From Trichlorobacter lovleyi SZ (lineage in GTDB: Bacteria; Desulfobacterota; Desulfuromonadia; Geobacterales; Pseudopelobacteraceae), in the NCBI RefSeq assembly GCF_000020385.1, contig NC_010814.1, positions 1 through 32,000 on the forward strand: a stretch of 32,000 nt of DNA, given 5' to 3'. Shown piece by piece: positions 12,719-27,870 of the stretch. The notes below the pieces were generated by a model that worked only from the letters and a program-made list of their open reading frames with translations, was not told the DNA's origin and searched no databases. Position 1 is the first letter of the stretch. The number at the start of each line of letters is the position of its first letter. The translations under genes were made by a program, and so were the position numbers.

Positions 12719-12767
12719 GGGTTCCTCCTGTATCACAGTCTGAATGGTTTCATCTTAGAAAAACAAA

Positions 12768-12787
12768 GCGACGGGTGCTGTCGTTTG
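12768..12787 (+). promoter_or_regulatory. Conserved element copy 1: GCGACGGGTGCTGTCGTTTG
   Basis: One of six co-oriented GCGACA-N5-TGTCGTTT sites. It lies 49 nt upstream of the Z2 start (12718). Confidence 0.6.
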
Positions 12788-12878
12788 AAAATCTGTTTTG
12801 CAGGCGTTCCTGAATAAAGACCGCATCAAGAACGCTGGCCAGGCCTCTAGATTCGCCAGGCATCAGGCAATACAAAGC

Positions 12879-13751
12879 TCACCGCATTGCGAGGATGGCG
12901 ACTTTGATGGTATCAGCAGCTAAATGCTCATCCGGAATAGCTCCAAAGACAAAGGAGATGTCATTTGAGAAATAACCGTCCATCACTGAGACAGCCTGGG
13001 CATAGTAGTCAAACGGCATGGTAGGGGAGCCGTAGATGCAGGCCATGGCACCACGACAGTTGGCTGAATTAACCCCCTGCTGCTGTAGCCGTTCCAATGC
13101 TTGACTGCAGGCTCGTGATCCCCGGTCTGCACCAGTAGCCTCACTGCACGAGAACAGTCCAAGGTTGCCTGAACGGAGGATTGCCTTGATATCGCCATGG
13201 TCAATGCCAACAAAGCTGTCGGTGTTGGCAAGATCAGCCACCAAGGCCACTAAGTCACGTGCTGTAGTGTGATGAACAACAAAACAATGGGGGGGAGTTG
13301 AACAGGTGAGTGGTAATGCAGAAAGAGGACGATCAGTGCTGTATGGGCCAACAACAACCGACTGTACGCCAGCTGCAGCTGTTGTATTGATACAGGATGA
13401 CAGCAATGAATCAGATGCCGGGTCGGTTGTATCTGCAAAAAGGAACAGCAGATCCGTCTGCTGGATAGTACGGTTCAAACTTGAGAAATCCAGGTTGCCA
13501 GAGCGTAGCTGGTCAGATAACACTTCATAGCAACAGACATTCTGAATAGAGTAGGCCAGAAGTCTGCTAAAGACTGCGCCTAAGCTATTGATTCCAAGTG
13601 TAGAAATACGCACGTTCTGATATGAGTCTCCACCAAGGTGGCGCAGTGAGGCATACTGCTTTATCAGAAGCGGAGAGATGCTGTGCGGTAGCAGTGTCGC
13701 CGCAAGCGTCGTCCCCTGCAGCATGGTAGTGAGAAATGTTCGCCTGTCCAT
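12879..13751 (-). CDS. Degenerate FtsZ-fold protein with twin-arginine (Tat-type) leader (Z1)
   Basis: 290 aa. The first 13 residues, MDRRTFLTTMLQG, are identical to Z2. It is colinear with FtsZ: ISTLGINSLGAVFSRLL; DLLFLFADTTDPASDS in place of T4; GVQSVVVGP; VGIDHGDIKAIL (T7-like, both Asp kept); ATGADRGSRACSQAL; GAMACIYG; IKVAILAM. Confidence 0.7.
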   Translation of the reverse strand: MDRRTFLTTMLQGTTLAATLLPHSISPLLIKQYASLRHLGGDSYQNVRISTLGINSLGAVFSRLLAYSIQNVCCYEVLSDQLRSGNLDFSSLNRTIQQTDLLFLFADTTDPASDSLLSSCINTTAAAGVQSVVVGPYSTDRPLSALPLTCSTPPHCFVVHHTTARDLVALVADLANTDSFVGIDHGDIKAILRSGNLGLFSCSEATGADRGSRACSQALERLQQQGVNSANCRGAMACIYGSPTMPFDYYAQAVSVMDGYFSNDISFVFGAIPDEHLAADTIKVAILAMR

Positions 13752-13806
13752 ATGTATGCCCCCTGACTTACATCATTTGTAACGGTGGTCAGGGTAGTCG
13801 ATATAT

Positions 13807-13827
13807 GCGACAATGACTGTCGCTTTA
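13807..13827 (+). promoter_or_regulatory. Conserved element copy 2: GCGACAATGACTGTCGCTTTA (perfect 6+5+6 palindrome)
   Basis: It lies 55 nt upstream of the Z1 start (13751), in the divergent spacer shared with the DUF2779 gene. Confidence 0.6.
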
Positions 13828-13872
13828 AAATGTTAGTGGTAGCAGTACATCATCCTGACAAACGGAGCTGCC

Positions 13873-15354
13873 ATGAAAAAATCTGCCATCCCCGGTCTCA
13901 GCAAGTCCCGCTATCTTAATGGTCTGCAGTGTCCTAAATATCTCTGGCTTGCAACCTGGCGCAAAGAGCTGAGAAATGAATTTGATGAAACAACTGAAGA
14001 GATACTGGCCCAAGGGCATCAGGTAGGAGACATTGCCCAGGAGCTGTTTCCTGGTGGTGTGGAGATCCCCTATGATGGGCTGAGTATTGATGAGCAGCTG
14101 CAGCAGACGCAGAATGTGCTCAAGCAGAGCAAGGTCATCTATGAGGCCTCGTTTGAGTACAATGGTGTCTTTGTCAAGGCAGACATCCTGCGTAAGGGGC
14201 GCGGAGGCTGGGAGCTGTATGAGGTTAAAAGTTCAAGTAAGCTAAAAGACACCTATTACGATGACCTGGCAGTGCAGTACCATGTCATTACCAATGCCGG
14301 TATCAAGATAACCAAGGCGCATCTGATCCACATCAACACCTCATACCAGCGCAAAGGCAAGCTTGATCCTCACCAGTTATTTACCATTGTTGATCTGACC
14401 GAAGGTGTCCTGGAAATGCAACCTGCAGTCAAAAAGCAGATTGCAACCTTGAAGAAGATGCTTGCCGGAGCAGAGCCGATTGTTCAGATTGGCCCGCATT
14501 GTGAAGACCCGTATGAATGTGCGTTTAGCGAGCATTGCTGGCAGGATGTACCGGATGAAGGATCGGTTTTTGACCTTGCCGGTAACGGTGCGGACTGCTT
14601 CAAGCTCTATCATGAGGGGATCACAAAGCTCAAGGACATCCCGCTTGACCGCGTAAAGGGCAAGCAACGCCAGCAGGTAGAGGCTGCCAAAAAGAAGCAG
14701 ACCATTGTCAACAAAGAGGGACTGCAGGAGTTTATGGACAGTCTCTGGTATCCACTCTGCTATCTTGATTTTGAGACCTTCATGGAGGCTGTTCCATCCT
14801 ATGATGGGCAACGTCCCTACCAGCAAATGCCGTTTCAGTTCTCGCTGCATATCCAGAAAAAGCCAGGTGGTAAGGTATACCATCATGAATATCTGGCACC
14901 ACCTGCTATAGACCCGCGCAAGGAGTTTCTGGATGAGCTGCTGAAGGTATTGCCGGATGACGGATGTATCATGGTGTACTACAAACCGTTTGAGCAGAGT
15001 CGGCTTAAAGAACTGGCAGAACTTTACCCACGTAAGAAAAAGCAGATACAGCAGTTGATTGACAATATGGTTGATCTGCTGGATCCGTTCAAGGCACGGC
15101 ACCTCTATTCATGGAAACAGCAGGGCTCACACTCGATTAAGGCAGTGTTGCCAGCCTTTGTGAAGGACTTGAGTTATGATGAGCTGGAGATTAGTAACGG
15201 TAGTGCAGCCATGCAGGCATACCATAGCATGTGTGCTTCGGTTGAGAGCCCCAGAAAACTGGCTACACTCAGGAAACAGTTGTTGGCCTATTGCAAGCAG
15301 GATACGCTGGCGATGGTTAGGTTGCTTGAAGTGATATCTGAAAGGGCAAGATAG
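13873..15354 (+). CDS. DUF2779-type protein: N-terminal Cas4/RecB-like PD-(D/E)XK nuclease with a Cys cluster plus a C-terminal DEDD/RNase H-like domain
   Basis: 493 aa. The N-terminus LSKSRYLNGLQCPKYLWL is the family hallmark. Other motifs are ADIL...ELYEVKSS (D..ExK), CEDPYECAFSEHC (Fe-S-type cysteines), CYLDFET (DEDD-like) and a C-terminal YCKQDTLAMV. Confidence 0.7.
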   Translation: MKKSAIPGLSKSRYLNGLQCPKYLWLATWRKELRNEFDETTEEILAQGHQVGDIAQELFPGGVEIPYDGLSIDEQLQQTQNVLKQSKVIYEASFEYNGVFVKADILRKGRGGWELYEVKSSSKLKDTYYDDLAVQYHVITNAGIKITKAHLIHINTSYQRKGKLDPHQLFTIVDLTEGVLEMQPAVKKQIATLKKMLAGAEPIVQIGPHCEDPYECAFSEHCWQDVPDEGSVFDLAGNGADCFKLYHEGITKLKDIPLDRVKGKQRQQVEAAKKKQTIVNKEGLQEFMDSLWYPLCYLDFETFMEAVPSYDGQRPYQQMPFQFSLHIQKKPGGKVYHHEYLAPPAIDPRKEFLDELLKVLPDDGCIMVYYKPFEQSRLKELAELYPRKKKQIQQLIDNMVDLLDPFKARHLYSWKQQGSHSIKAVLPAFVKDLSYDELEISNGSAAMQAYHSMCASVESPRKLATLRKQLLAYCKQDTLAMVRLLEVISERAR

Positions 15355-15387
15355 CAGCCACTTTTTCAATACAAGGGAGCGTATGTC

Positions 15388-16017
15388 GTGGGCACAACCG
15401 TAATCATTGAAGAGAAGGCGTTTTTGGGGGTCTTGTTGGCAGCAGTTGAGGCGTTTCCCGGCAGGTTTTATGGTGAGCGCAAGCCCAAAGGTGCAACTGC
15501 AGAGGGAGAGGTGCATGGCCTCCTGTTTGGGCAAAGGATTCAGCGAAATGATGGGGATGTTGTCTTCAATGTGACCCTGACTGTGCCAAACCAGATAGTG
15601 CTGGAACGAACGCATGACGGAATTTCCGTTGCTGCAAAGCATATCAATAAAATCAGGGAGGCAATAGAATTATTCCCGGCGTACAGCCTGCTGGGGTTTT
15701 TCCACAGCCATCCATATCCGGCGGATGAATTCAAAAAATGCAGCTCAGTTGAACCGTCAGAAACTGACAGGGATAGTGCTATCAGTTCTGCAGAGCAGGA
15801 AGAGGAGGAGATGCTTGACCTGATTTTTAGCATTACAAGGCTAAAGAGGCCCACATGGATATTGCCGCAATTCCCGAAACCTTATTTAATTCATGCCAGT
15901 TGCGGCGTTTACAAGTATACGCTGGCCTGCTATAGTGCCGTAACCTCTGAGCATGAGGAGTCCTACGGGGCGGTTGACAATCTGATTTGTACTACGGCGG
16001 CAGGGTTGCAGGCATAA
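15388..16017 (+). CDS. JAB/MPN (JAMM) metallopeptidase-domain protein
   Basis: GTG start with an AGGGAG RBS. The JAMM pattern is EVHGLLFG ... GFFHSHPYP...SSVEPSETD (E, HxH, SxxD). Confidence 0.65.
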   Translation: MGTTVIIEEKAFLGVLLAAVEAFPGRFYGERKPKGATAEGEVHGLLFGQRIQRNDGDVVFNVTLTVPNQIVLERTHDGISVAAKHINKIREAIELFPAYSLLGFFHSHPYPADEFKKCSSVEPSETDRDSAISSAEQEEEEMLDLIFSITRLKRPTWILPQFPKPYLIHASCGVYKYTLACYSAVTSEHEESYGAVDNLICTTAAGLQA

Positions 16018-16040
16018 ATTGCGCTTGAACTGGAGGGATA

Positions 16041-16379
16041 ATGCGTACAGTCGAACCTATTTTTAAAGTTAAAACAGGTGATTATAAAAAAATGGAAGAA
16101 ACATTAAAAAGGACTATTGGACAATATATTAGGCATTCAAAAGAATGTAAAATTGGCATTACTAATGATCCTTATGTCAGATGGAATAGCTATATCTCTG
16201 CAAATACCAGATATAATGAAATGATAGTTTTTTATAAGACTTCATCATATTCATATATTTGTGAAGTAGAGAAGTATTTAATAGATCATGCAAAAGACTA
16301 CGTAGACAATCAGAGAGGTGGCGGTGCCGGTATAAAAGATTGCCATAATGATTATTTTGCATATATTGTAAGACTGTAA
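16041..16379 (+). CDS. Small protein, tentatively GIY-YIG/T5orf172-like
   Basis: 112 aa with a GGAGGG RBS. The segment CKIGITNDPYVRWNSY ... EVEKYLIDH resembles the YIGxTxxxxxR ... E core. The gene is markedly AT-rich compared with its neighbours. The assignment is weak. Confidence 0.35.
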   Translation: MRTVEPIFKVKTGDYKKMEETLKRTIGQYIRHSKECKIGITNDPYVRWNSYISANTRYNEMIVFYKTSSYSYICEVEKYLIDHAKDYVDNQRGGGAGIKDCHNDYFAYIVRL

Positions 16380-16414
16380 TTACTTATTACTACACAATCA
16401 ATTGGAGGCTTAAA

Positions 16415-16651
16415 ATGGCACACGAGGTAAGTATCAACCTTCATACTAAAGTTGTCGCACATAAAGACCTTGAAATAGAAATTAAAACCATTTCAGACAA
16501 AAAAACAACTAAACTCGGTACGTTACTCATAAGTAAAGGAAACTTAGAGTGGCTGCCTGCAGGATGTTCAGTCAACAAAAAACAAATGACTTGGACTAAA
16601 TTTGCTGAACTAATGGAAATTAATGGCAAATCTTCAAAAGCGAAACAGTGA
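16415..16651 (+). CDS. Small hypothetical protein (78 aa)
   Basis: GGAGG RBS, and the same AT-rich composition as the preceding gene. No family recognised. Confidence 0.5.
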   Translation: MAHEVSINLHTKVVAHKDLEIEIKTISDKKTTKLGTLLISKGNLEWLPAGCSVNKKQMTWTKFAELMEINGKSSKAKQ

Positions 16652-16741
16652 ATGTATCTTGAATGTGTTTCGGTAATTCAAGGATATAGCGTTTAACATA
16701 TTGATCTCCATTTTTCTTCCTGATTTTCTAAAAAATATCAA

Positions 16742-16786
16742 CAATCTATGCAATTTGTCAATAAGATTGATAAATTGCATAGATTG
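16742..16786 (-). terminator. 21-bp inverted repeat (20/21 match, 3-nt loop), a possible bidirectional or minus-strand terminator
   Basis: CAATCTATGCAATTTGTCAAT-aag-ATTGATAAATTGCATAGATTG. In the minus sense it is followed by TTGATATTTTTTAG. It lies between the convergent plus-strand and minus-strand gene blocks. Confidence 0.4.
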
Positions 16787-16985
16787 GCCTGTATCACCCT
16801 TTCCATGATCTCCCGCATGGCTGAACAAATAATCCGCACCTGCTAAAGGCTTCCCGGTTATAACACTGTGAATCGGCATGCAATATTGACCCACTTTCGG
16901 GTGTAATCGGCGTCCAAAATTGACCCACCTCAGCACCTCCTCCATTCTCTTTGGCATCATCCAGAGAGAGGAGCTTTGAAAGGAG

Positions 16986-18500
16986 ATGCTGCTAGTGGAA
17001 TCCATCCGTAAAATCCGCCAGGCTTACCACCGGGACAAGAAACCAATCAGGCAGATAGCCCGTGAGTTTCATCTGTCTAAGAACACCGTCAAGAAAATCA
17101 TCAGAAGTGACGTAACCGATCAGGTTTATACCCGCACCGAACAGCCCAGGCCAAAGCTTGCTGCATTTGAAGAACGTCTCAAAGGACTGTTGTCTGAAGA
17201 TGCCGTAAAGCCAGTCCGCCATCGTCGTAGTGCCCAGTTATTGTTTGAGACGCTACAGCGGGAAGGATTTGAAGGTGGCTATGACAGCGTCCGTCGTTAC
17301 ATCCAGCAGCAGCGCAAAGAGACCGGCGGCGGCGTAGCCGCAGCCTTTATTCCGCTATCCTTTGATCCTGGTGAGGCATTTCAGTTTGACTGGAGCTATG
17401 AGCAGATTGAGTTGGGTGGGATCATCGTAAAGGTCAAGATTGCTCAGTTTCGCCTCTGTAACAGTCGGATGCCATTTTGCGTGGCCTACACACGTGAGAG
17501 CCTGGAGATGGTTCTGGATGCTCATATCAAGGCATTCAGCTTCTTTGGTGGTGCCTGTCGGCGTGGTATCTACGACAACCTAAAAACCGTAGTAACCAAA
17601 GTCCTGATGGGCAAGGATCGTGTATTCAATCGTCGGTTTTTGAGTCTGGCCTCCCACTACCTGTTTGAACCGATAGCCTGCACTCCTGCTGCAGGCTGGG
17701 AGAAGGGGCAGGTAGAGAATCAGGTAGGCCTTGTGCGCAAGCGTTTCTTCGCCAAACGGCGGACATTTACCAACCTTTCTGAGCTAAACCAGTGGCTGCA
17801 GGAACAATGTCTGGACTACGCAGCAACCCAGAAACATCCTGACAACCCACTCCTGACGATCAATGACCTGTTTAAGGAGGAACGCCGGCAGCTTCTCACG
17901 GTAACGGTTCCGTTTGACGGTTATCTGGAAAGCGATGCCAAGGTATCTTCTACCTCCCTGGTCTCATTTGACCGCAACCGTTACAGCGTCCATGTCTCTG
18001 CTGTTGGCAACCCGGTCACGGTACGGGCCTATGCTGATCGTCTGACCTTTGTCCAGAGCGGCAGAACCGTAGGATTCCACAAACGGCACTTTGGTCGTGA
18101 TCAGGTCTTCTATGATCCCTGGCACTATCTGGAGGCACTGAAGAAGAAGCCGGGAGCACTCAGAAACGGTGCACCGTTTAAGGAATGGAATTTGCCGGAA
18201 TCTATTGAGCAAATCCGTAGTGCCCTTGCCAAGCACCGTGATGGTGACCGGCAGTTTGTCGGGATACTGGCGGTTGTCTCCTACTATGGCATTGAAGCAG
18301 TAACACAGGCATGCACTGATGCATTGGCAGCCAATACCATCAGTCGGGATGTCGTGCTTAATCTGTTGTCCCGAAACGATGAAGAACCGACACCAACGGC
18401 AGATCCTGCAGCAAAACTGCCGGTTTTGATCATACCGCCTGTAGCTGACTGCAGGCGGTATGACCTGCTGCTTGCCGGAGGTGCCTGTGCTACTGCGTGA
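16986..18500 (+). CDS. istA: IS21-family transposase IstA
   Basis: 504 aa. N-terminal HTH ([18 protein letters not shown]) and a DDE integrase core (FQFDWS..., [20 protein letters not shown]). Confidence 0.93.
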
Positions 18501-19224
18501 GAAACTGCAAAAGGCCATGGAGACCCTTGGGCTGCATGGCATGAAGACTGCCTGTGACGAGCTGATCGCCACAGGCATCAAACAACGGGCCACACCGGAG
18601 AAGATCCTGTTTGAGCTGCTTAATGCAGAGCTGGCTGAACGGAGAATCAGAAGTATCCGCTACCGCCTGAGTCAGGCAAGGTTTCCAGTAGAGAAGGACC
18701 TGGATCACTTTGAGTTTACGGATACACCGATCAACGAGACACAGGTCAGAATGCTGTATGAGGGAGGCTTTCTTACTGAAAAGAGTAATATCATTCTGGT
18801 AGGTGGAACCGGTACCGGCAAGACCCATCTGGCCATTGCCATTGCACGGCAGGTGATCAGAAACGGTAAGCGTGGCCGATACTTCAACCTGCTGGATCTG
18901 GTCAACCAACTAGAACAGGAAAAGCTAAGCGGACGCGGAGGAAAGCTTGCAGAGGCACTCTGCAGGCTTGATCTGGTTGTGCTGGACGAACTGGGCTATC
19001 TGCCGTTCTCAAAGGCTGGAGGACAGCTGCTGTTTCACCTTATATCAAAGCTGTACGAGAGAACATCGCTTATCATTACCACTAACCTGACCTTTGGAGA
19101 ATGGCCGCAGGTGTTCGGTGATGGCAAAATGACCACGGCACTTCTGGACAGGGTTACCCATCACTGCGAAATCGTCGAAACAGGAAATGAAAGCTGGAGA
19201 ATCAAAACCAGAAACTCAGACTAA
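18460..19224 (+). CDS. istB: IS21-family helper ATPase IstB
   Basis: AAA+ motifs are [13 protein letters not shown] (Walker A) and LVVLDELGY (Walker B). The more likely start is GTG 18487, preceded by GGAGG. Confidence 0.92.
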
Positions 19225-19290
19225 AATCAACCGCTGAGGTGGGTCAATTTTGGACGCCGATGGTGGGTCAAATTTCAATGCCGATTGACA

Positions 19291-19611
19291 GTCTGCGTTT
19301 TTGTGAGGCTTCAACATGACATCCTGCATGCCTGATAGCAGCTCAAGCTTATCATCAAGGTCGCAGAGTTTTTTGTTCAGCTTAACCAAGCCGGTGCTGA
19401 CCAAAGGGCTTTCTGGTTGGAGTGCCCGATGGAACTCACCCTCTTTAATGCCGGTCAGGTGTGCCAGCAGTTTACAGAGTGAGTCGGTAGTTGTCTTTTG
19501 TGTTCTAGGTGCAATGGCAGAACGGAATTCAGTAAAGATGCTCAGGCCTGCTGCAAAGGTGAAAACAGCCTGATCTGCCTCAGTTAGCTGGTCGTGATTT
19601 GTGAAACATCC
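19291..19611 (-). pseudogene. Gene fragment trapped between the IS21 and IS3 insertions (possible 3' part of the last operon gene)
   Basis: Only one minus-strand frame is open across the whole interval: ...GCFTNHDQLTEADQAVFTFAAGLSIFTEFRSAIAPRTQKTTTDSLCKLLAHLTGIKEGEFHRALQPESPLVSTGLVKLNKKLCDLDDKLELLSGMQDVMLKPHKNAD. There is no start codon of its own. I could not verify frame continuity with 20832-21214. Confidence 0.3.
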
Positions 19612-19658
19612 TGATGGGTAGAATAAGCAATATACCGATCTGGTTGTCGTTTCTGGCC

Positions 19659-20788: not shown

Positions 20789-20831
20789 GGAACCTCTCCT
20801 TTCAAAGGGATCGGCTCATTGCTTATACTCA

Positions 20832-21214
20832 TGTCTCAAAAACCGCAACCACTTCACAGTCAGATTCAACATTCCTGTCAGCAGTTTTATGTTTCTAAAA
20901 AATGGGAGTGAATCTGAAAGCTTCTTTTTGGCAAGCTTCTGGCGTTGGCGGACAAGCAGTTTCATACAATGCCCGGCTGTTACGCGTTCAGGCTGCTCCT
21001 CATGGTCTGTATCAAGGGCAGTCATGGCGCAGAAGTCGGAATCCTCGAATATATCCGGCCAGCGTCTGGGGTGACTGGGGCGATGCCAACCGAAGTAGAG
21101 TATGATGTCGATCAGCCAGACTCCAAAAAGCGGGGTATATTTTACATTTTCTCCAGGCCGTTTGCAGCATGTTAGGCTATTTGCTGCTGAGTGAGAAAGG
21201 AATGAAAGTGACAT
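20832..21214 (-). pseudogene. 5' part of the last gene of the WYL-regulated operon (gene X), truncated by the IS3 insertion
   Basis: The start is reassigned to ATG 21214 (MSLSFLSH...), which has GGGAGG 8 nt upstream and conserved element copy 3 48 nt upstream. No family recognised. Confidence 0.35.
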
Positions 21215-21262
21215 GGCTTCTGCCTCCCAACGATAGTGTTGGGTACAGAATGCCACAGAGTG

Positions 21263-21283
21263 GCGACAAGTTGTGTCGTTTTA
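21263..21283 (+). promoter_or_regulatory. Conserved element copy 3: GCGACAAGTTGTGTCGTTTTA
   Basis: It overlaps the MBL gene stop codon and lies 48 nt upstream of ATG 21214. Confidence 0.6.
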
Positions 21284-22549
21284 CAGATTATTGCTACCGA
21301 GATCGTATTCAGTCCCGTCGTTAACCATCAGACAGTTGCCAAAATAAAACTCATAATCTGCAGGGAATTCAGTGTGAACAGGAACCAATTGGCGTGGCTT
21401 AACTGCTTTGACAAGGCGTTGCAGATCTTCAACCGGGGCGTGACCGCTGGTGTGGGCATAGACATACCGAACACCCGGGCGCACTTCATCCTTAATTGAA
21501 CGCATGACTTGGGTATGTATGGCTTCTTCCGGCTTGGGAGCTAGATACCCCTGCCACTGAGAGTAGATCACCGTTGTGGGCTCTTCCTCGCATGCAAATT
21601 TAAATATTAAGCTGGCTGACGATACTTTTAGCAGCATAAGATACTTGGCCGGATGTGTTCGCAGCTCGCCTCCTTTAATTCTGTTTGAAACAGCCTGATT
21701 TATAAAGTCACCGAACATCCCTCGGTTTGCCGGGTCAAACAGAACTGACGACTTCCTCTTATCAAATACCACGCCTATAGAATCCCAGTCGATGGTTGGC
21801 GTACCTTGGGAAACTTGTCGTACCTGCTCCAAAACCCAAGCTGAATAGATATCCAGTACCAGGGTTTTGCCAGTGAATTTGCATGCACGGTAAGCAGAGA
21901 CAATACGATCTATATTCTGTGAAGAAGAAATAAGGAAAGAAATGTTGCGCTGCTTTCTGAGGATGTTTGCAATTTCAGTTTCCACTGATTTTTCATCAGA
22001 AAAGCTGCTGTTATCACGCTGCAGCATGGTGCCTTCCATCAGCATTAGATCTATATTTTGAGGAGGTTTATTGAGCAGCTTTTCAAACAGTACAGACTTG
22101 CGGCCATGGCCCCGGAAGTCCCCTGTATAGAATAAACGCTTCCCTTCGGCTTCGACAATAAATCCGTAGGCATCTGTTGCGGAATGGTCCATCAGATAGG
22201 GGGTGATTGTAATATCCCCGACACTGAAAGGTAGCCAAGCATCAATGGTTCTAAAATCGTTTGCTAATAGCGGGTGTCCCAAGAATAATCTGGTGGCGTT
22301 GAGCAAACCTTTGGCAACTTTGCCTATGTATACCGGCATGGATGAGGGTATCGTGTCAAGCAGTCCACAGTGATCTTGGTGAGAGTGGCTGATTATCAGC
22401 GCATCAGCCGCCAGATCAGCTTCGGTCAGCGGTTGGCTATTAGCTGCCAAGGGAAGACCTGCATCCAGCAGGATACTGATTGTCTCTGTACTGATACGGA
22501 TACAGGTTCCACCTATTTCATGGCTGCCACGGTGGATGGTGAACTTCAT
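21281..22549 (-). CDS. Metallo-beta-lactamase fold nuclease of the beta-CASP type
   Basis: 422 aa. Motifs are LLDAG, ISHSHQDHCG (HxHxDH), MDHSATDAYG, YTGDFRGHG and a C-terminal YAHTSGHAPVEDLQRLVKAVKPRQLVPVHTE (beta-CASP motif C pattern). Confidence 0.8.
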   Translation of the reverse strand: MKFTIHRGSHEIGGTCIRISTETISILLDAGLPLAANSQPLTEADLAADALIISHSHQDHCGLLDTIPSSMPVYIGKVAKGLLNATRLFLGHPLLANDFRTIDAWLPFSVGDITITPYLMDHSATDAYGFIVEAEGKRLFYTGDFRGHGRKSVLFEKLLNKPPQNIDLMLMEGTMLQRDNSSFSDEKSVETEIANILRKQRNISFLISSSQNIDRIVSAYRACKFTGKTLVLDIYSAWVLEQVRQVSQGTPTIDWDSIGVVFDKRKSSVLFDPANRGMFGDFINQAVSNRIKGGELRTHPAKYLMLLKVSSASLIFKFACEEEPTTVIYSQWQGYLAPKPEEAIHTQVMRSIKDEVRPGVRYVYAHTSGHAPVEDLQRLVKAVKPRQLVPVHTEFPADYEFYFGNCLMVNDGTEYDLGSNNL

Positions 22550-22580
22550 AAAACTGTGTCGTCCTTGATATCAGCTTGTC

Positions 22581-23522
22581 TCAGTTCAAGCTGTTCCTGA
22601 ACAGGGGGGATGCACCATATTCGCCTAAAACTTTATTTGCAGCGTTTTCGAGATCCGCAACTTTTTGAAGGTTTTCGACTCCCTGAACCAGAAACAAGGC
22701 TTTAAACTCGATATCAACATTCTCTTGCGGTGCCGCCACACCGGGTAACAGGCCTAACTCAATTTTTTCCCTTAGAATGTTACGAACAGATTCTTTAAAA
22801 GCTCTACGGGCATCTTTATCATTTCCCCCCGAGATAAACTGCTTTAAATCTTCAGCATGTTCTGCTACGCCTGCCTTGCCATCAACAGCTCCCAGGCCCT
22901 GTTTAAACTCAATCAGGTACACAGTAAGAGGTCCAGCGGCATGCAATTCGGTTCGTTCTAATGCGATCATATCAAAACGGCAGAGCCTGCGGCCAGCCGT
23001 CCGTTTGTCGCGACTTCTTTCGCCATGCAGCCAGACAGCATATTCAATATCCAGAATGATCCAGTGAGATGATGGATTCCGAGTGGATTCAGATGCAAGT
23101 TTATGTTGTAGTTCCCGTTCTGTTTTATTGTTGCCATCCTTAAACCAGTCATTCATCACATTTTTCAGCTTCGGGAAGCATTTAACCCAAGATGATGCGT
23201 CCCTAGGTATTTCTTTGAGCCAAGCAGCATCAACCTCCCATTCATCCTTACCTTTCCTCTTGTAGTAGTTTGGATCAAAGCTGAAGTTGATCTGTCTGCC
23301 GCGGAAGCTGCTGATTTTGAGCAGGCTTCCCCCCTTATAGTAGATATTCACATAGCCATCACGAATTTGGAGATCGAGATCGAGATCAGGATCATTTTTT
23401 ACAGCTTCAACAATCACACGTAGTTGTTCCTGGTGTTTTGGGGATACTCTGTCAAATTGAATTCCCCGGATTTTAGGCTTAACTGGCGGTTCTTTGCTCA
23501 AATTGGTCGTAGTGTCGTCCAT
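22581..23522 (-). CDS. Predicted PD-(D/E)XK-like nuclease-fold protein (family not recognised)
   Basis: 313 aa. The candidate catalytic pattern is ERELQHKL ... ILDIEY ... RFDMIAL ... VYLIEFKQG (E / D / ExK). The call rests on motifs only. Confidence 0.45.
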   Translation of the reverse strand: MDDTTTNLSKEPPVKPKIRGIQFDRVSPKHQEQLRVIVEAVKNDPDLDLDLQIRDGYVNIYYKGGSLLKISSFRGRQINFSFDPNYYKRKGKDEWEVDAAWLKEIPRDASSWVKCFPKLKNVMNDWFKDGNNKTERELQHKLASESTRNPSSHWIILDIEYAVWLHGERSRDKRTAGRRLCRFDMIALERTELHAAGPLTVYLIEFKQGLGAVDGKAGVAEHAEDLKQFISGGNDKDARRAFKESVRNILREKIELGLLPGVAAPQENVDIEFKALFLVQGVENLQKVADLENAANKVLGEYGASPLFRNSLN

Positions 23523-23531
23523 AAGATTCTC

Positions 23532-25043
23532 CTATAATTCACAATCAGCAAGATAACGGCTATTAGCCGCCGTGAACCTTTTAACTTCATCTTGGTCGCC
23601 GATCGCTTTCCACTCCTCTAAAATCCTATCCAAACTGTATGGTTCATGCGCCGCCAACAATTCCGCTCGCTTAAGGCATTTTTTTGCCGACTCGATGTCA
23701 TTAAAGTCTTCACGCCATATCTGGGCTAGCCATATCATTTCTCCGTCTGCCGCATCAGGTATAGCATCAGATCGGAGCAGGACGTTTCTTGCTCGTTCTC
23801 GTTCATTGAACTCTATCCAGCATTTTGCTAACTGGATAAGGTTAATAACCGCCCCCAAATTGGTATGTTCAACATGTTCTTCAGCAATTAACAGACACCT
23901 GCGAGCTTCGTCCTTGTCCTTAATTTTATCCTTCCAGAAATCCACGCAGGCACTCCAGGCGGTAAAGTCTTCCGCACGTTTTTCAGCTTCTCGTAGGCAT
24001 CGGATTGACTCCCTCCCGGATTTGTCGACAATCATCCAGTTCTCTGCACATGTAAGCCAATCCCACGCCCGCTCTGCCTGTTTCTCCGCTTCTCCTGGGT
24101 TAATCCTTAGCCATCCCTCTTCTGCAAGCTTGCGTAGTTGCCGACGCGGGTGGCCAAGTAGCACTTTTAGCTTCTTTGCATGATGGGGCTCAACCTTGTT
24201 GTGAAAAAACAGATCATCATTCAATGACGCATATCCTTTTTCGATCTGTACCTCTAATTGTGTGACTGTTTCAGTGAATGCATCGTCTTTGCTGAAGACG
24301 GTGTTCAGCCTCGACAACAGACGAGGAATCAGTTTTCGAGATTTCTTTGCCTCAAGGCACTCGTCAAAAAAATCAAGCATTGAATTAAGCATCTCTGAGT
24401 TGCTATTTTTATCGTCCATCTCGGCACAACAAGTATGGTTATGAGCTTCGGCCCGCTCTATTGCTTTTCTCATCGAGTCATCAAGCAGAAAAATATCTTG
24501 GCACGAAAGCTCTTCAATTGCCTTTACCTGCTCATCAGTAAATGTGCCGACTTTGGTATTGCCCTTGAGAGAAGAGGCTATTTCAATGACACTCCTTACA
24601 ACATACATTGGCCAAGAGGATGCAAGTACCTTATCTACCTTGTTTCCATATTCTTCCGTTATAATTACCGGAGCACATCCATTTTCATCAATAATTGTCG
24701 AGTCCAACGCCGTTGTGATTGGGGCGCCTGGGTAGCCGATATAGATCCTTTTCCAGCTGTCTTGCGGGTCATCACTAGAAACGGTACGACCATCGCATTC
24801 CATCAACTCAAATATTGAGACAATCTCCAGCGTCCCTTCGAGAAACTCGATAAGGCCTGAACCGTGTAGGGTCAACCAGTAGCGGTAGTCCGGAGGTACG
24901 ATCTTATTTTGTTTCTGCTCATACTGTGAAATCTGCTCCTCGGAAACAGGAACCAGCTTGGTATAGGTAATAAGTGGCCGAGCTTGTTCTAAAAACTCCC
25001 ACGCAATCTTGGTTTGCTTTATTACAACATCAGAATATTCCAT
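23532..25043 (-). CDS. SUKH (SMI1/KNR4)-like N-terminal domain fused to Trp-rich TPR/Sel1-like helical repeats
   Basis: 503 aa. IVPPDYRYWLTLHGSGLIEF matches the SUKH LPxDYxxFL..xNG signature. The C-terminal half has repeated A.xxxxxAxxW-type helical units (AERAWDWL, FTAWSACVDFW, LAKCWIEF, LAQIWRED, ILEEWKAI). Confidence 0.55.
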   Translation of the reverse strand: MEYSDVVIKQTKIAWEFLEQARPLITYTKLVPVSEEQISQYEQKQNKIVPPDYRYWLTLHGSGLIEFLEGTLEIVSIFELMECDGRTVSSDDPQDSWKRIYIGYPGAPITTALDSTIIDENGCAPVIITEEYGNKVDKVLASSWPMYVVRSVIEIASSLKGNTKVGTFTDEQVKAIEELSCQDIFLLDDSMRKAIERAEAHNHTCCAEMDDKNSNSEMLNSMLDFFDECLEAKKSRKLIPRLLSRLNTVFSKDDAFTETVTQLEVQIEKGYASLNDDLFFHNKVEPHHAKKLKVLLGHPRRQLRKLAEEGWLRINPGEAEKQAERAWDWLTCAENWMIVDKSGRESIRCLREAEKRAEDFTAWSACVDFWKDKIKDKDEARRCLLIAEEHVEHTNLGAVINLIQLAKCWIEFNERERARNVLLRSDAIPDAADGEMIWLAQIWREDFNDIESAKKCLKRAELLAAHEPYSLDRILEEWKAIGDQDEVKRFTAANSRYLADCEL

Positions 25044-25099
25044 TGCCCCGCCCCCTGGTTGTCATGTGATACGGAAATTTGCCCGGATTAGCGCGAAAT

Positions 25100-26098
25100 T
25101 TATCCAGGTCTATACATCTTGGCATAAGCATCTGCGAGCTCGACATACTCCTGTCGCAGAGAGGCCGGAGCCAGAACCTCCACCCTGCTACCAAAGCCAT
25201 TGAGCCACCAGCGTAGTTGCAGGGTATCTTCCACGGTTGCGGTAAGTTCGTGTCCATCAGCAGTTGCATGTATCTTCTGATTCGCTGCCAATGGAGACTC
25301 TTCAAGCCGCTGCATATCAACCTTGTGACTAAAACGAACTTTCAATCGAATACTACTGCCAACCGGAAACGTCAAAAGCTCTTGCACCCACGCATCCAGA
25401 TCAAAGTCCTCCGGCACGGTGACCGGTTTGTCCAGCAGGTCAATCGTCTGGAACCGGTGCAGCAGCAGCAGGATCGGTTCAACATGCTGGTTGATGGAGG
25501 CGATCAGGTAGGTCAAGCCATCAACAAAGGTCATGCCCAGAGGATTTACCTCTTCGTATGTTTTTGACTTGCCAGATACGGTTGTGTAGGTGGCTTTGAA
25601 GCGTTGTTCCTCCAACAGGGCGGTGTACGCCTTTTCAGTGATTTCCTCTGATATTGTTGGTGGAATGGTCGTCAGGCTGCGGGATAGGACCCTGACCTTA
25701 TTTGGCCAGGCAGCCAGCTTTGGATCAACAGCAGATTTTAAGCGTTGCTCTGCGGTTTTTTGATAGGGGATTAATGCTGAGAGTATGCCTTTCGGGAACA
25801 TCTTTTCCAGATACTGGCTGGCAAGGGTAAAGGTGAGGGCTGTAACCGGATCCATGTTGGGCATGTCAAAGTTTGCAGCATCATCAGTCCATTTCCAGCC
25901 CGATGGTTTTCTTCCGTCACTTGCAATCGGAAAGAGCGCTTCCAGTTCAATCAGATCCCGCTGGATAGTACGCAGGGTAGTTTCAATGCCGTCTTCATGT
26001 TTGAGTCGACTGCAGATCTCAACTGTCGAAATACCGGTTCCCCTCCTGGGGATCATGCGCAGGATTAGCCAGTGGCGATAGAGAGTACTCATGCTCAT
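25100..26098 (-). CDS. WYL-domain transcriptional regulator (wHTH-WYL-WCX architecture, BrxR/CapW-like class)
   Basis: N-terminal wHTH (LYRHWLILRMIP..GISTVEICSRL.....LRTIQRDLIELE), a central WYL-type beta domain (YEEVNPLGMTFVDGLTYLIA) and a C-terminal WCX-like LQLRWWLNGFGSRVEVLAPASLR. The more likely start is ATG 26092, based on GGAG spacing. Confidence 0.8.
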   Translation of the reverse strand: MSMSTLYRHWLILRMIPRRGTGISTVEICSRLKHEDGIETTLRTIQRDLIELEALFPIASDGRKPSGWKWTDDAANFDMPNMDPVTALTFTLASQYLEKMFPKGILSALIPYQKTAEQRLKSAVDPKLAAWPNKVRVLSRSLTTIPPTISEEITEKAYTALLEEQRFKATYTTVSGKSKTYEEVNPLGMTFVDGLTYLIASINQHVEPILLLLHRFQTIDLLDKPVTVPEDFDLDAWVQELLTFPVGSSIRLKVRFSHKVDMQRLEESPLAANQKIHATADGHELTATVEDTLQLRWWLNGFGSRVEVLAPASLRQEYVELADAYAKMYRPG

Positions 26099-26120
26099 TG
26101 CTCCATCATATGGGAGATAT

Positions 26121-26140
26121 GCGACAACTGCTGTCGTTTA
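26121..26140 (+). promoter_or_regulatory. Conserved element copy 4: GCGACAACTGCTGTCGTTTA
   Basis: It lies 22-28 nt upstream of the WYL gene start. In the minus sense it is directly preceded by TTGCCT-N16-TATGAT, a good -35/-10 pair. Confidence 0.65.
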
Positions 26141-26202
26141 TCATAGCAGTGTTTTGGCATGAGGCAATACATAGGAACCGAACTACCAACAGGGGACAAA
26201 GA

Positions 26203-26230
26203 GCTGGCACGCTCTTGCGAGCGTGCCAGC
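26203..26230 (-). terminator. Rho-independent terminator after the acidic-tail gene
   Basis: A perfect 12-bp stem, GCTGGCACGCTC-ttgc-GAGCGTGCCAGC. In the minus sense it is followed by TCTTTGT. It begins 8 nt after the stop at 26238. Confidence 0.75.
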
Positions 26231-26237
26231 AGGATTG

Positions 26238-26609
26238 TTAGAATGAATCATCATCTTCCTGGTGATCATCTCCAGAATCATCAAGCTCATCCTCATCAAT
26301 CTCCAGATCTTCGTCATCTTCAAAATCAGGCAGGTGCTGCTCAACCAGTCGTGCCGGTACGCTTCGGGCATGGGAGAGATCTTGTTGGCGTGCCACAAGC
26401 AAGAACGAGTCGCAGACAACCAGCAGCATCTCCATGTCACGCAGGTGGCTACCAATCTGATTGAGGTAGGAGGGAGTCAGTTTGGGTACTCCGGCAATAC
26501 TCCGTAACTCCGGCCAACCGAGCTGAAACTGCTCATAGCTGTCATTGGCAAAACTCTCGTCGTAAATTTCTGATAGTACCTGTGCTGTCTCTTGTGCGGT
26601 GCGTGCCAT
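26238..26609 (-). CDS. Small protein with an extremely acidic C-terminal tail ending DDDSF
   Basis: 123 aa with an AGGAGG RBS. The tail is PDFEDDEDLEIDEDELDDSGDDHQEDDDSF. The globular part was not recognised. Confidence 0.6.
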   Translation of the reverse strand: MARTAQETAQVLSEIYDESFANDSYEQFQLGWPELRSIAGVPKLTPSYLNQIGSHLRDMEMLLVVCDSFLLVARQQDLSHARSVPARLVEQHLPDFEDDEDLEIDEDELDDSGDDHQEDDDSF

Positions 26610-26652
26610 GATGGGCCTCCTGTATCGTTATGAGTCCATTCTAGTTGAAGGT

Positions 26653-26673
26653 GACGACAGATTGTGTCGTTTG
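26653..26673 (+). promoter_or_regulatory. Conserved element copy 5: GACGACAGATTGTGTCGTTTG
   Basis: It lies 43 nt upstream of the acidic-tail gene start (26609). Confidence 0.6.
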
Positions 26674-26715
26674 TCGACTTGCCTGGAGATCAACAGATAA
26701 TCAAGATCTTCATAT

Positions 26716-27672
26716 CTAGCAGAGGTTGCTAAAACAAAGCGTATCCGCGTGGAAATTGACAAATACAGTGCCGATAGGCCCATTTTTATGTTTTGCAACA
26801 ATAATTTCAGCCAGGTCTTCATGGTTGTGGACGCATGAACCATCACGACGCCTGCAGGCTTTGCAGTAGACCGACTCCCGGTAGATGAGCAATATGACAT
26901 CGGCATCGTCTTCAAGTGAGCCAGTGTTCCCCAAATCACTCAGTTTTGGCCGGGTCTTCTTTGCCTTTCGCCTGCCTACTGACGAATGCAGTTGGGAAAG
27001 CAGAATAACAGCTACACCAAGCTCTCTGGCTAACACCTTTAACGAACTTGAAATTCGGGATATTTCTGTGGGATCAAGAGCTGACCTGGCATCATCCCGC
27101 ATGAGCTGCAGATAGTCTATGATAATGACCTGTACGTTATGATCAACTTTCAGGCGTATGGCCTTGGCAAGGAGCTCCGTAATACTGATACCTGAAGTGT
27201 CGTCAACATAGATGGCGCTTTTCCGTAAGGTCTCTTTCGCATCATCAAGTTTGCACAGATCTGATTCCGATAAATGTCCGGTTCGTGCCCTGCAGATATC
27301 CACGTGGGCAACCGCTGATAGCAAACGTATGCCCAGTTGTTCCTTTGACAGTTCAAGCGAAAATATTGCTGTGGGAATGGTGTGCTTTAGCCCCACGTTC
27401 ATGGCAATGTTCATAGCTAACGAACTTTTGCCATTTGATGGGCGTGACGCTATGACAGTCAAGGTTCCCGGCTGCAATCCGCATAACATATGGTCAAGGT
27501 CTAGAAACCCCGTTGGATATCCGGTTATAGCTCCAGCATGTTCGTGGGACTGCTGAACCATTTTAAGTGATTCATCGATAAACTCATGCACTGCATAAAT
27601 TGGTTGACCGCTATAGCGGTACACAGGTTTGCATAATGAATTCTGTGCCGATTGATTTTCAAATGATTGCAT
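26716..27672 (-). CDS. DnaB-like helicase, C-terminal RecA-type ATPase domain only
   Basis: 318 aa. GYPTGFLDLDHMLCGLQPGTLTVIASRPSNGKSSLAMNIA (Walker A), VIIIDYLQLM (Walker B), ILLSQLHS...RPKLSDLGNTGSLEDDADVILLIYRE, IVAKHKNGPIG. There is no DnaB N-terminal domain. It carries an extra Cys/His stretch, CKACRRRDGSCVHNH. Confidence 0.8.
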   Translation of the reverse strand: MQSFENQSAQNSLCKPVYRYSGQPIYAVHEFIDESLKMVQQSHEHAGAITGYPTGFLDLDHMLCGLQPGTLTVIASRPSNGKSSLAMNIAMNVGLKHTIPTAIFSLELSKEQLGIRLLSAVAHVDICRARTGHLSESDLCKLDDAKETLRKSAIYVDDTSGISITELLAKAIRLKVDHNVQVIIIDYLQLMRDDARSALDPTEISRISSSLKVLARELGVAVILLSQLHSSVGRRKAKKTRPKLSDLGNTGSLEDDADVILLIYRESVYCKACRRRDGSCVHNHEDLAEIIVAKHKNGPIGTVFVNFHADTLCFSNLC

Positions 27673-27714
27673 AACGCCTCCAGCTGTAGAGTGTGCACAA
27701 GAGTAACCTCATAA

Positions 27715-27735
27715 GGCGTCAGTATGCGTCGTTTG
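27715..27735 (+). promoter_or_regulatory. Conserved element copy 6 (degenerate): GGCGTCAGTATGCGTCGTTTG
   Basis: It has the same spacing and TTTG extension and lies 42 nt upstream of the dnaB-like start. Both half-sites deviate (CGTCA / CGTCG). Confidence 0.4.
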
Positions 27736-27846: not shown

Positions 27847-27870
27847 CAGTGAGTCTGAAACTATTGAGGG

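Follow-up and report, generated by a model that had tools for sequence, protein, structure and literature searches.

The first 32,000 nucleotides of Trichlorobacter lovleyi SZ contig NC_010814.1 (positions 1 to 32,000 of the forward strand, hereafter the window) contain six copies of a short palindromic box, each located upstream of a minus-strand gene in the cargo of a Tn7-like element. One of those genes encodes a regulator with a WYL domain. The locus raises the question of what these boxes are, which protein acts through them and in which direction it acts. A preliminary description of the window had proposed that the boxes join the cargo genes into one regulon under the WYL regulator and that they lie at the transcription start. 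Judged from sequence comparison, the six boxes are probably the sites of the WYL regulator of the island, an activator of the DriD/DdaA type, and they occupy the place of the -35 element in six promoters.

Identification of the six boxes

The window was searched with the pattern GCGACA-N5-TGTCG where up to two mismatches were allowed, and this 16-nt pattern recovered all six palindromes that had been noticed on one strand. The box reads AAA-CGACA-N5-TGTCGC in the sense of the downstream genes (written in full, AAACGACA-N5-TGTCGC), which is CGAC-N7-GTCG. The six copies are co-oriented, and approximately 0.2 copies are expected by chance. They are listed below with their start on the plus strand, their sequence in gene sense, the gene they precede (Z1 and Z2 are FtsZ-like paralogues and gene X is the remnant of an ATPase gene) and the distance to the start codon.

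Copy 1: start 12768; aaaCGACAGCACCCGTCGC; upstream of Z2; 49 nt
Copy 2: start 13807; aagCGACAGTCATTGTCGC; upstream of Z1; 55 nt
Copy 3: start 21263; aaaCGACACAACTTGTCGC; upstream of gene X; 48 nt
Copy 4: start 26121; aaaCGACAGCAGTTGTCGC; upstream of the WYL gene; 22 or 28 nt
Copy 5: start 26654; aaaCGACACAATCTGTCGT; upstream of the acidic-tail gene; 44 nt
Copy 6: start 27716; aaaCGACGCATACTGACGC; upstream of the DnaB-like gene; 43 nt

The starts and distances given previously for copies 1-4 are right, whereas copies 5 and 6 had each been placed 1 nt too low (26653 and 27715) and their distances had been given as 43 and 42 nt. Copy 2, which lies between Z1 and the divergently oriented DUF2779 gene, is perfectly palindromic. 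Copy 6 has two core mismatches (CGACG...TGACG), and the same sequence is found in a sister element.

Significance was assessed with 1000 dinucleotide-preserving shuffles of the window. The strict core CGAC-N7-GTCG occurs at five sites (10 over both strands) compared with a shuffle mean of 0.42, and CGACA-N5-TGTCG has a count of 8 compared with 0.04. The relaxed core CGNC-N7-GNCG followed after 11 nt by [T/C]AnnnT occurs six times, all on the minus strand, compared with 0.23. The counts of the strict core and of the phased relaxed core were reached in 0/1000 shuffles. A weight matrix was also trained on other loci only, with the window left out. The six copies (minus sense) are the top six positions of the 32 kb in the scan with this matrix (22.9-31.8 bits), and on shuffled sequence the 95th percentile is 15.8 bits and the maximum is 22.6 bits. 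Both the shuffles and the independent matrix place the motif far above chance.

The matrix scan of the window detected no box in the dnaA-dnaN-recF-gyrB and gyrA flanks, which agrees with the earlier view that the chromosomal core lacks the motif. That view had been extended to the plus-strand cargo genes, where it does not hold fully: copy 2 read toward the DUF2779 gene is the seventh-best match (18.6 bits).

Position of the boxes relative to the -10 hexamer

All six copies of the window have a -10 hexamer of the form [T/C]AnnnT at exactly 11 nt past the last G of GTCG (TAAGAT, TACCCT, CATTCT, TATGAT, TAGAAT and TACTCT for copies 1-6). The predicted promoters, all on the minus strand, are listed below with their matrix scores.

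Promoter 1: 12752..12786, minus strand; box AAACGACAGCACCCGTCGC, core 12769-12783; -10 TAAGAT at 12752-12757; 24.4 bits; drives Z2
Promoter 2: 13791..13825, minus strand; box AAAGCGACAGTCATTGTCGC, core 13808-13822; -10 TACCCT at 13791-13796; 24.5 bits; drives Z1
Promoter 3: 21247..21281, minus strand; box AAACGACACAACTTGTCGC, core 21264-21278; extended -10 TGgCATTCT, hexamer at 21247-21252; 31.8 bits, the best score; gene X
WYL control region: 26105..26167, minus strand; box AAACGACAGCAGTTGTCGC, core 26122-26136; second TATGAT at 26105-26110; 28.1 bits
Promoter 5: 26638..26672, minus strand; box AAACGACACAATCTGTCGT, core 26655-26669; -10 TAGAAT at 26638-26643; 25.7 bits; acidic-tail gene
Promoter 6: 27700..27734, minus strand; box AAACGACGCATACTGACGC, core 27717-27731; -10 TACTCT at 27700-27705; 22.9 bits; gene with the DnaB_C domain only

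The hexamer is followed by the start codon after 27-39 nt at five of the promoters, which is a normal leader length, with a Shine-Dalgarno sequence in between; at the WYL gene this distance is only 6-12 nt. In a scan for consensus sigma70 promoters, five of the six showed no -35/-10 pair at any workable spacing. The sixth is the WYL gene, which has an upstream sigma70-like promoter (TTGCCT-16-TATGAT, 26140-26167). The box itself was also considered as a disguised -35 (ACGACA or TTGTCG), and this was rejected on spacers to the -10 of 21 or 11 nt.

The preliminary description had placed the palindrome at about +1, directly preceded by -10 hexamers. Because the -10 sits 11 nt downstream in 6/6 copies, the box spans roughly -38 to -24 and is neither at +1 nor transcribed, and the spacing is kept in homologous loci. 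As for the hexamers upstream of the boxes, TTGCCT-16-TATGAT at the WYL gene is real and is conserved in close relatives (loci L001-L003 and L081), whereas TAATCT at gene X is not conserved among orthologous promoters. The upstream TAACAT at the Z1 box is common to locus L002 (TAACAT/TATCAT), and no -10 was found upstream of the box in copies 1, 5 and 6.

Copy 2 read toward DUF2779 on the plus strand is followed by a weak -10 (TAGTGG, 13834-13839), and the two-way arrangement is also present in L002. Copy 2 may serve the divergent DUF2779 operon too. The A-rich tract just 5' of the box may be an UP-like contact for the alpha C-terminal domain.

The leaders of Z2 and of the acidic-tail gene share GATACAGGAGG on the minus strand (12729-12739 and 26619-26629; two copies). 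This similarity just before the ATG, which had been pointed out before, is real, and 6/11 bases of GATACAGGAGG are Shine-Dalgarno sequence; AGGAGG(C) is kept in the majority of the 15 acidic-tail gene leaders that were aligned. The extra GATAC common to both leaders may be the trace of a copied promoter-leader cassette, or chance.

Conservation of the promoters among homologous loci

Homologs of the WYL protein number in the hundreds at 50-90% identity, with Trichlorobacter, Geobacter, Pelotalea and Desulfuromonadaceae among the names; the named relatives closest to it come from T. lovleyi. When a representative genome of each GTDB species was scanned with a profile, 212 relatives were identified, and 80 loci (L001 onwards) were taken for comparison. 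Strict boxes occur 120 times in the 1.08 Mb of these loci. When the offsets of TAnnnT were counted from oriented strict boxes, a single spike was observed at 11 (46/242, compared with approximately 3 at other offsets), and the relaxed core CGNC-N7-GNCG gave a spike of 78 at the same offset compared with approximately 9. Position -14 is G in 27 of the 46 phased sites, which indicates an extended -10.

The box also travels with the regulator gene. CG[AT]C-N7-G[AT]CG was found within 250 nt upstream of the WYL gene in 54/79 loci (68%), compared with 0-8% in control windows farther off; for comparison, 68/69 alphaproteobacterial DriD homologs have a box in their own promoter. A second box peak was observed after the WYL stop codon in the homologous loci.

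What is conserved among the orthologous promoters of the acidic-tail, tandem-AAA, DnaB_C and Z1 genes is the box together with the -10. In 15 aligned loci with homologs of the acidic-tail gene, the conserved blocks are the box, TGn, a [C/T]ATACT-like hexamer at fixed spacing and AGGAGG, and the box, TGn and -10 are kept in most of them. The promoters of the gene X orthologs in L001-L003 conserve the box and TGnCATTCT and not the 5' flank with TAATCT. An exact-sequence look-up of the WYL protein of the window gave no match, and a protein that is 90% identical to it (P0001) was used to reach related elements. A sister element on T. lovleyi contigs, inserted at the same gyrA-proximal site, has the box and -10 before the DnaB_C, acidic-tail, WYL and intact AAA genes, and promoter 6 has exactly the same sequence in L081, a sister element.

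The flanks of the box vary by clade (AAA-, ATG-, GTG- and TCG-CGAC). Pairs of WYL paralogs were observed close together in L007/L023 (one contig, CAIMXI010000354.1) and in L024/L079 (OW818669.1, 15 kb apart). The differing flanks among the boxes of paralogs suggest either paralog-specific recognition beyond the common core or cross-talk.

Single boxes with TAnnnT at offset 11 on both sides were observed in L001 (19822-19836, between a SIR2 gene and a gene for a 225-aa protein) and in L045 (1400-1414, between the WYL gene and a gene for a 325-aa protein). They look like bidirectional activator sites.

The WYL regulator encoded in the island

WYL regulator gene: 25100..26098, minus strand; winged helix-turn-helix (wHTH), three-helix bundle, WYL domain and WCX domain, DriD/DdaA family (Pfam WYL and WCX)

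The start codon is probably the second ATG, at 26092. Pfam places WYL at residues 154-220 and WCX at residues 250-325. The AlphaFold2 model (mean pLDDT 82) has a wHTH (H5-15, H25-36, H42-55 and strands 58-70), a helical bundle (H84-129) and then the WYL and WCX beta domains. The protein has the domain order of the DriD/DdaA type, which is wHTH, three-helix bundle, WYL domain and WCX dimerisation domain in approximately 330 aa. When the model was searched with Foldseek, the best match was DriD (8tp8), aligned over its full length (approximately 345 columns, E 8.5e-15, 21% identity). PafBC came next, and the repressors BrxR and CapW ranked well below. The sequence matches in the PDB below 1e-8 are DriD chains only; a phmmer search of the PDB with the N-terminal 124 aa gave no meaningful match.

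A closer relative was identified by tblastn of PLSDB, where Acinetobacter baumannii replicons of 3.6-4.1 Mb carry a WYL homolog (ORF L085:374-1381). This DdaA homolog aligns by BLASTP over the full length (32% identity, 327 aa, E 6e-49), and the recognition helix LRTIQRDL is identical in both proteins. R43, R47, Y171 and Y197 of the window protein are invariant in 61 homologs and align in the same BLASTP comparison with R47, R51, Y173 and Y200 of the Acinetobacter protein. It has been reported that R47Q and R51Q in DdaA abolish promoter activity and that Y173S and Y200S abolish the damage response (PMC13010146). Y171 and Y197 also match Y168 and Y192, the tyrosines of DriD that contact single-stranded DNA (ssDNA). 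The match of R43 and R47 to R37/E40/R41 of DriD rests on residue spacing and on the alignment in the DdaA paper.

The box starts 38 nt before the start codon of the WYL gene, and likewise in L001-L004, L007, L011 and L017. In the start region (26086-26110), the arrangement hexamer-GGAG-N2-ATG-N3-ATG with two in-frame ATGs was observed in 8/8 loci. The two starts could belong to a leaderless mRNA from the box-dependent promoter and a Shine-Dalgarno-led mRNA from the upstream promoter, which is weakened by an ATT in place of the first ATG in L081. The WYL protein may repress its own gene at the upstream promoter, activate it at the downstream promoter, or do both. The -35 region of the upstream promoter, TTGCCTCATG(G/C/A)CAAA, is a near-palindrome (TTGCC-N4-GGCAA in L003, ~2440-2470) and could be a second operator.

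A scan of viral_contigs with a profile of the WYL family found no relative, so there is no evidence of phage carriage.

Comparison with characterised WYL regulators

Work on DriD (Caulobacter, 2022-2026) and on DdaA (Acinetobacter, 2026) has already described the operator, the family of regulators and how such promoters work, so the motif is not new. DriD of Caulobacter crescentus acts in an SOS-independent DNA-damage response (PMC9186387, PMC10853764, PMC13004042). It binds the consensus ATACGAC(X)7GTCGTAT, and the driD promoter itself carries ATACGACAGTTACTGTCGTAT (PMC10853764, PMC13004042), which may be compared with AAACGACAGCAGTTGTCGCAT for copy 4 of the window. Both regulators thus share CGAC-N7-GTCG and a box in their own promoter. 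The half-sites of the boxes vary as in the published DriD code, XC1G2X3C4-N7-G12X13C14G15X, where both G2 and the G opposite C4 are read by arginines (PMC10853764). In the cryo-electron microscopy paper, the sites of DriD are described as covering the -35 position, always equally far from the -10, in promoters without a consensus -35, and DriD with ssDNA mainly recruits RNA polymerase (PMC13004042). The didA oligonucleotide contains ...ATACGACCGTTTCTGTCGCAATGCGCGGACAATCT..., and its 'optimised -35' swaps CCGTTT for TTGACA at the box centre (PMC13004042). Because DriD sites share the overlap with -35, the missing -35 and approximately the same spacing to the -10, the copies in the window are read as DriD-type activator-dependent promoters.

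[quoted passage not shown] Both systems have a cell-division function among their targets, which is didA in Caulobacter and the FtsZ paralogs in the window. The differences from DriD lie in the protein (identity of approximately 20%, a wHTH that HMMER does not align, and K202, R204 and W206 not conserved), in the box flanks (AAA/C in the window, ATA/TAT for DriD) and in the genetic context. DriD is chromosomal and controls recA, recJ, dnaG, bapE and didA, whereas the regulator of the window and all sites detected there are in Tn7-like cargo with FtsZ and DnaB paralogs or truncations, nucleases and an AAA ATPase.

DdaA of Acinetobacter acts in a DNA-damage response that includes the division inhibitor AciT, and its site is CGACAATATGTGTCG (PMC13010146). 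It shares the site type CGACA-N5-TGTCG with the window, as well as the recognition helix and the four aligned residues described above. Unlike the regulator of the window, DdaA is a chromosomal master regulator (recA, ssb, uvrA, aciT) with no mobile-element context reported. Its aciT site is reported to lie approximately 160 bp upstream of the gene, and phasing with a -10 is not described for it.

PafBC, which acts at the mycobacterial RecA-NDp promoter by sigma adaptation, is likewise a WYL activator that senses ssDNA at promoters without a -35. It differs in being a heterodimer or fusion with a non-palindromic site, and it ranks below DriD in the sequence and fold searches. The PafBC motif, tTGTCRgtg-N8-TAnnnT, has its TGTC element at the same distance upstream of TAnnnT. 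CapW and BrxR, from CBASS and BREX systems, have wHTH, WYL and WCX domains, sense ssDNA (CapW) and control accessory or defence cassettes on islands. They differ in being repressors with different operators, 11-14% identity and clearly lower ranks in the fold search.

Proposed mechanism and its alternatives

The analysis shows the motif and its statistics, a fixed phasing with the -10, conservation of the box and its co-occurrence with the regulator gene, and the homology of that regulator; the binding, the sign of regulation and the signal are inferred. A dimer of the WYL protein would bind each box, with the recognition helix LRTIQRDL (R43 and R47) reading the CGAC and GTCG half-sites 7 bp apart. 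The box would stand in the -35 place with its last G 11 nt from [T/C]AnnnT, often preceded by TGn. Because they have no -35 of their own, the promoters would give almost no transcription before RNA polymerase is recruited by the activated regulator, as in the cryo-electron microscopy of DriD. By analogy with DriD and DdaA, the signal would probably be ssDNA bound by the WYL domain, which would report DNA damage or foreign DNA that is invading or replicating. Six units would be turned on together upon activation: the DnaB_C-only gene; the acidic-tail gene; the WYL, SUKH-like, 313-aa and MBL genes; the tandem-AAA gene, which is inactivated here by insertion sequences (IS); Z1; and Z2 with the FtsZ-like gene. 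The divergent DUF2779-JAB-GIY-YIG operon would perhaps be a seventh. The proposal that the WYL regulator is the single factor over one regulon is thereby borne out at the level of sequence, where the motif is the DriD/DdaA box, the homology is full-length and the two co-occur across 80 loci. The linkage of the units also stands, and two of them are revised: gene X is an AAA remnant cut by IS elements, and the DUF2779 operon may share copy 2.

Several points weigh against an activator of the DriD type. The N-terminal wHTH is not aligned to DriD by HMMER, and the link rests on the DdaA homolog and the fold. K202, R204 and W206, by which DriD contacts ssDNA, align with E207, I209 and L211 in the window protein, and the effector could differ from ssDNA or bind differently. 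For DriD promoters, the didA oligonucleotides put the -10-like hexamer 10-11 nt past GTCG, a spacing that is uncertain by 1 nt, and fixed phasing with the -10 is expected for some repressors too. At the WYL gene, the downstream -10 abuts GGAG/ATG and would give a near-leaderless mRNA, and the upstream promoter would put the box at +1, where autoregulation may be negative. A WYL paralog of the host might also use the boxes, as genomes with several paralogs exist (L007/L023 and L024/L079).

The alternative that survives best, though we regard it as unlikely, is that the box is a repressor operator, where the WYL protein would sit over the promoter core in the manner of CapW or BrxR, keep RNA polymerase out and be released upon a signal, with derepression of the genes. 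The WYL regulators of defence systems, CapW and BrxR, are described as repressors that sense ssDNA (PMC11662680), and many of the targets look conflict- or defence-like (nucleases and AAA here, SIR2 and JetA in related loci). The box at +1 of the upstream WYL promoter fits a repressor as well, and DriD has been proposed to repress its own gene, where a similarly start-proximal box was read as autorepression. However, five of the six promoters lack a recognisable -35, which leaves little to repress, and their box/-10 geometry is that of DriD-activated promoters. By sequence and by fold, the protein also resembles DriD, DdaA and PafBC, which are activators (18-32% identity), more than it does BrxR and CapW.

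A second alternative, which we consider improbable, is that the boxes are used mainly by a chromosomal DriD-like master regulator of the DNA-damage response of the host, that the island merely adds its genes to this host regulon and that the WYL protein of the island is redundant or has another target. The near identity of the cores across alpha-, gamma- and Desulfuromonadota-type regulators would permit this, as would the genomes that have two or more close paralogs. Against it, the box travels with the WYL gene (at most 250 nt upstream in 68% of the loci), also inside the sister transposons, and the clade-specific flanks suggest a private specificity; the chromosomal part of the window is free of boxes.

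We give little credence to the third alternative, in which the palindrome lies at about +1 behind -10 hexamers and is either an operator over the transcription start or a 5'-terminal RNA hairpin. It draws on the conserved upstream promoter of the WYL gene (L001-L003 and L081) and on the upstream hexamer that the Z1 box has in common with L002, but the -10 spike lies downstream of the box at +11, copies 1, 5 and 6 have no upstream -10, and at gene X it is the downstream TGnCATTCT and not the upstream hexamer that is conserved. Variation of the arms was examined in 109 boxes with a phased -10. Positions 3 and 13 show A/T variation with a weak correlation, where 36 departures from A/T stay within A or T and 27 are uncompensated (T/T or A/A) compared with 9 compensated; positions 5 and 11 are independent (Fisher p = 1). 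The constancy of G2, C4, G12 and C14 is imposed by the search pattern and is no evidence by itself, and these positions are also conserved in the acidic-gene promoters that were collected by gene homology. Copies 1 and 6 break the would-be stem, and Rfam gave no match in the window at gathering thresholds. The hairpin that the preliminary description had entertained, in the 5' untranslated region, is ruled out because the arms vary as in DriD sites and mostly without compensation, the element is untranscribed with its -10 downstream, and Rfam is empty. The operator at +1 survives at the WYL gene only, where autorepression is possible.

Chance matches or a dispersed repeat of the repetitive extragenic palindromic (REP) or miniature inverted-repeat transposable element (MITE) type can practically be dismissed: the element is short and palindromic, but 0/1000 shuffles reach the counts, only the box of 15-19 nt and the hexamer are common to the copies and no flanks are, and the copies are all intergenic, co-oriented with the downstream gene and conserved at orthologous promoters.

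Transcription units of the predicted regulon

The genes that follow the six boxes, and the divergent operon that faces copy 2, are listed below.

DnaB-like gene: 26716..27672, minus strand; 318 aa, C-terminal RecA-like helicase domain only (Pfam DnaB_C, 1.4e-79)
Acidic-tail gene: 26238..26609, minus strand; 123 aa, acidic C-terminal tail
SUKH-like/helical-repeat gene: 23532-25043, minus strand; 503 aa, downstream of the WYL gene
Gene of unknown function: 22581-23522, minus strand; 313 aa, downstream of the WYL gene
MBL/beta-CASP nuclease-like gene: 21281-22549, minus strand; downstream of the WYL gene
Gene X: 19288..21214, minus strand; remnant of a tandem-AAA+ ATPase of approximately 718 aa, with codons 1-119 at 20858-21214 and codons 117-217 at 19288-19590
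Z1: 12879..13751, minus strand; 290 aa, degenerate FtsZ-like, with weak matches to FtsZ_C and TIGR00065 and the N-terminal twin-arginine-like MDRRTFL
Z2: 11831-12718, minus strand; paralog of Z1
FtsZ paralog: 10814-11815, minus strand; 333 aa, Tubulin and FtsZ_C domains, TIGR00065 at 349 bits with a cut-off of 295
Possible seventh unit: 13873..16651, plus strand; DUF2779/Cas4-like nuclease (13873-15354), JAB-like (15388-16017), GIY-YIG-like (16041-16379) and a 78-aa open reading frame (ORF; 16415-16651)

The DnaB-like protein scores below the cut-offs of the equivalog models of full-length DnaB, and its DnaB_C ortholog in L003 is also box-driven. The acidic-tail protein matched no Pfam family; its homologs adjoin WYL genes in 16/80 loci. 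A strong GC-rich terminator-like hairpin of 12 bp was observed after the acidic-tail gene (26203-26230, minus strand), which separates this gene from the WYL promoter. The SUKH-like, 313-aa and MBL genes (21281..25043) probably form one operon with the WYL gene because they share its orientation, are separated by short gaps and have no box of their own. This module is missing in the sister elements, where the WYL gene is directly followed by the AAA gene. Gene X is split by an IS3-family element and cut off by an IS21-family element, and a tblastn search with the intact ortholog of L001 showed that the remainder is missing. Intact box-driven tandem-AAA homologs occur in at least six loci. An ORF antisense to the AAA gene fragment (19316-19573, plus strand) is probably spurious.

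Z1 clusters with the FtsZ-like box targets of other loci. The N-termini of Z1 (13730-13751) and Z2 (12697-12718) are both MDRRTFLTTMLQG, which is twin-arginine (Tat)-like; a box-driven 225-aa protein in L001 (~19690-19836, minus strand), unrelated to Z1 and Z2, begins with MDRRGFLTSLA. The FtsZ paralog follows Z2 in the same orientation with no box of its own, and promoter 1 probably drives it as well. This paralog has essentially no linker, and its C-terminal end, ...ADKPILRLAKGRLM, has a faint likeness to the conserved C-terminal peptide of FtsZ. FtsZ-like genes adjoin WYL genes in 12/80 loci. DUF2779 accompanies the WYL gene in 27/80 loci and is directly box-driven in L008, L014 and L018.

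PADLOC-DB 2.0 assembled no defence system, with only generic Cas4, WYL and JAB matches and one weak mad8. A literature search returned no papers on DUF2779 with WYL, and a search for WYL, FtsZ, DnaB and Tn7 returned nothing that describes such a cassette.

The genes with a box and -10 in other loci are listed below.

WYL gene itself: 17 promoters
FtsZ-like: 7 promoters
Tandem-AAA ATPase: 6 promoters
Unknown protein of 140-217 aa: 6 promoters
DnaA-like (DnaA_N and ATPase, no domain IV): 5 promoters
DUF2779: 4 promoters
SIR2: 3 promoters
DnaB_C: 3 promoters
Acidic protein: 3 promoters
ADP-ribosylglycohydrolase: 1 promoter
JetA: 1 promoter

A 525-aa protein at L001 8200 may contain ankyrin repeats, to judge by eye from its sequence. 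DnaA-like box targets were observed on the minus strand in L019 (~9876), L027 (~3377), L028 (~4440-4517) and L076 (~16898). They are 339-351 aa long, except for the L076 member (192 aa), with DnaA_N and the ATPase and no DNA-binding domain IV; this domain call was made with Pfam on the L019 member only, and the rest were grouped to L019 by BLAST. Partial paralogs of replication and division proteins (DnaA-like, DnaB_C-only and FtsZ-like) are a recurrent theme among the targets.

The Tn7-like element carrying the regulon

Tn7-like element: 6517..28249, no strand assigned; termini TGTAGG...CCTACA, GCACG target duplication of 5 bp at 6512-6516 and 28250-28254
tnsA remnant: 6869-7249; TnsA N-terminal domain (1.1e-9), truncated after 126 codons by the IS5-family element
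IS5-family element: 7397-8491
IS110-family element: 8837-9946
IS21-family istA/istB: ORFs 16986-19224; cuts the tandem-AAA gene
IS3-family orfA/orfB: ORFs 19659-20788; splits the tandem-AAA gene

The element has the hallmarks of the Tn7-like class, which are the termini, the 5-bp duplication, the end repeats, tnsA at one end and insertion beside a conserved gene. Four direct repeats that resemble TnsB sites are located at the gyrA-proximal end (27819-27850, 28110-28141, 28141-28172 and 28224-28244), and an inverted copy is located at the other end (~6528-6547). The element is inserted 10 nt past the gyrB stop codon and upstream of gyrA, with the end that has tnsA beside gyrB. T. lovleyi contigs that carry sister elements show the same gyrA-proximal junction, and the site downstream of gyrB may be a homing site. 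The four IS elements have decayed the island, and no tnsB, tnsC or tnsD gene is left in the window.

Implications for the WYL regulators and their targets

What is new in this locus is the reach and the content of the regulon. The architecture of box, N11 and -10 is also found in Geobacterales/Desulfuromonadales and at many loci of gamma- and betaproteobacteria, and a Tn7-like transposon can carry a DriD-type regulator together with its private regulon. Classical repair genes are not what recurs among the targets, which include nucleases of the DUF2779 type, a tandem-AAA ATPase, a small acidic protein and partial FtsZ, DnaB and DnaA proteins.

A speculative possibility, to which we attach limited weight, is that the transposon carries a self-contained DriD-like alarm regulon whose outputs would not be repair enzymes and in which truncated or tail-less paralogs of replication and division proteins would serve as dominant-negative decoys that stall both processes. 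The ssDNA arising from damage or from phage or plasmid replication would trigger the FtsZ without a linker, the two degenerate FtsZ-like proteins and the DnaB_C-only protein, or, in related loci, DnaA without domain IV, and these paralogs would come together with nucleases and the tandem-AAA ATPase. A block of division and replication by decoys upon damage or invasion is attractive by analogy, because both characterised relatives drive a cell-division inhibitor (DidA and AciT). If true, the element would represent a hitherto undescribed kind of mobile checkpoint or abortive-infection module.

Scanning for the box, N11 and TAnnnT should predict the regulons of WYL activators in uncultured bacteria. 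By analogy with DriD and DdaA, the finding also singles out unstudied effector genes whose expression ssDNA probably induces.

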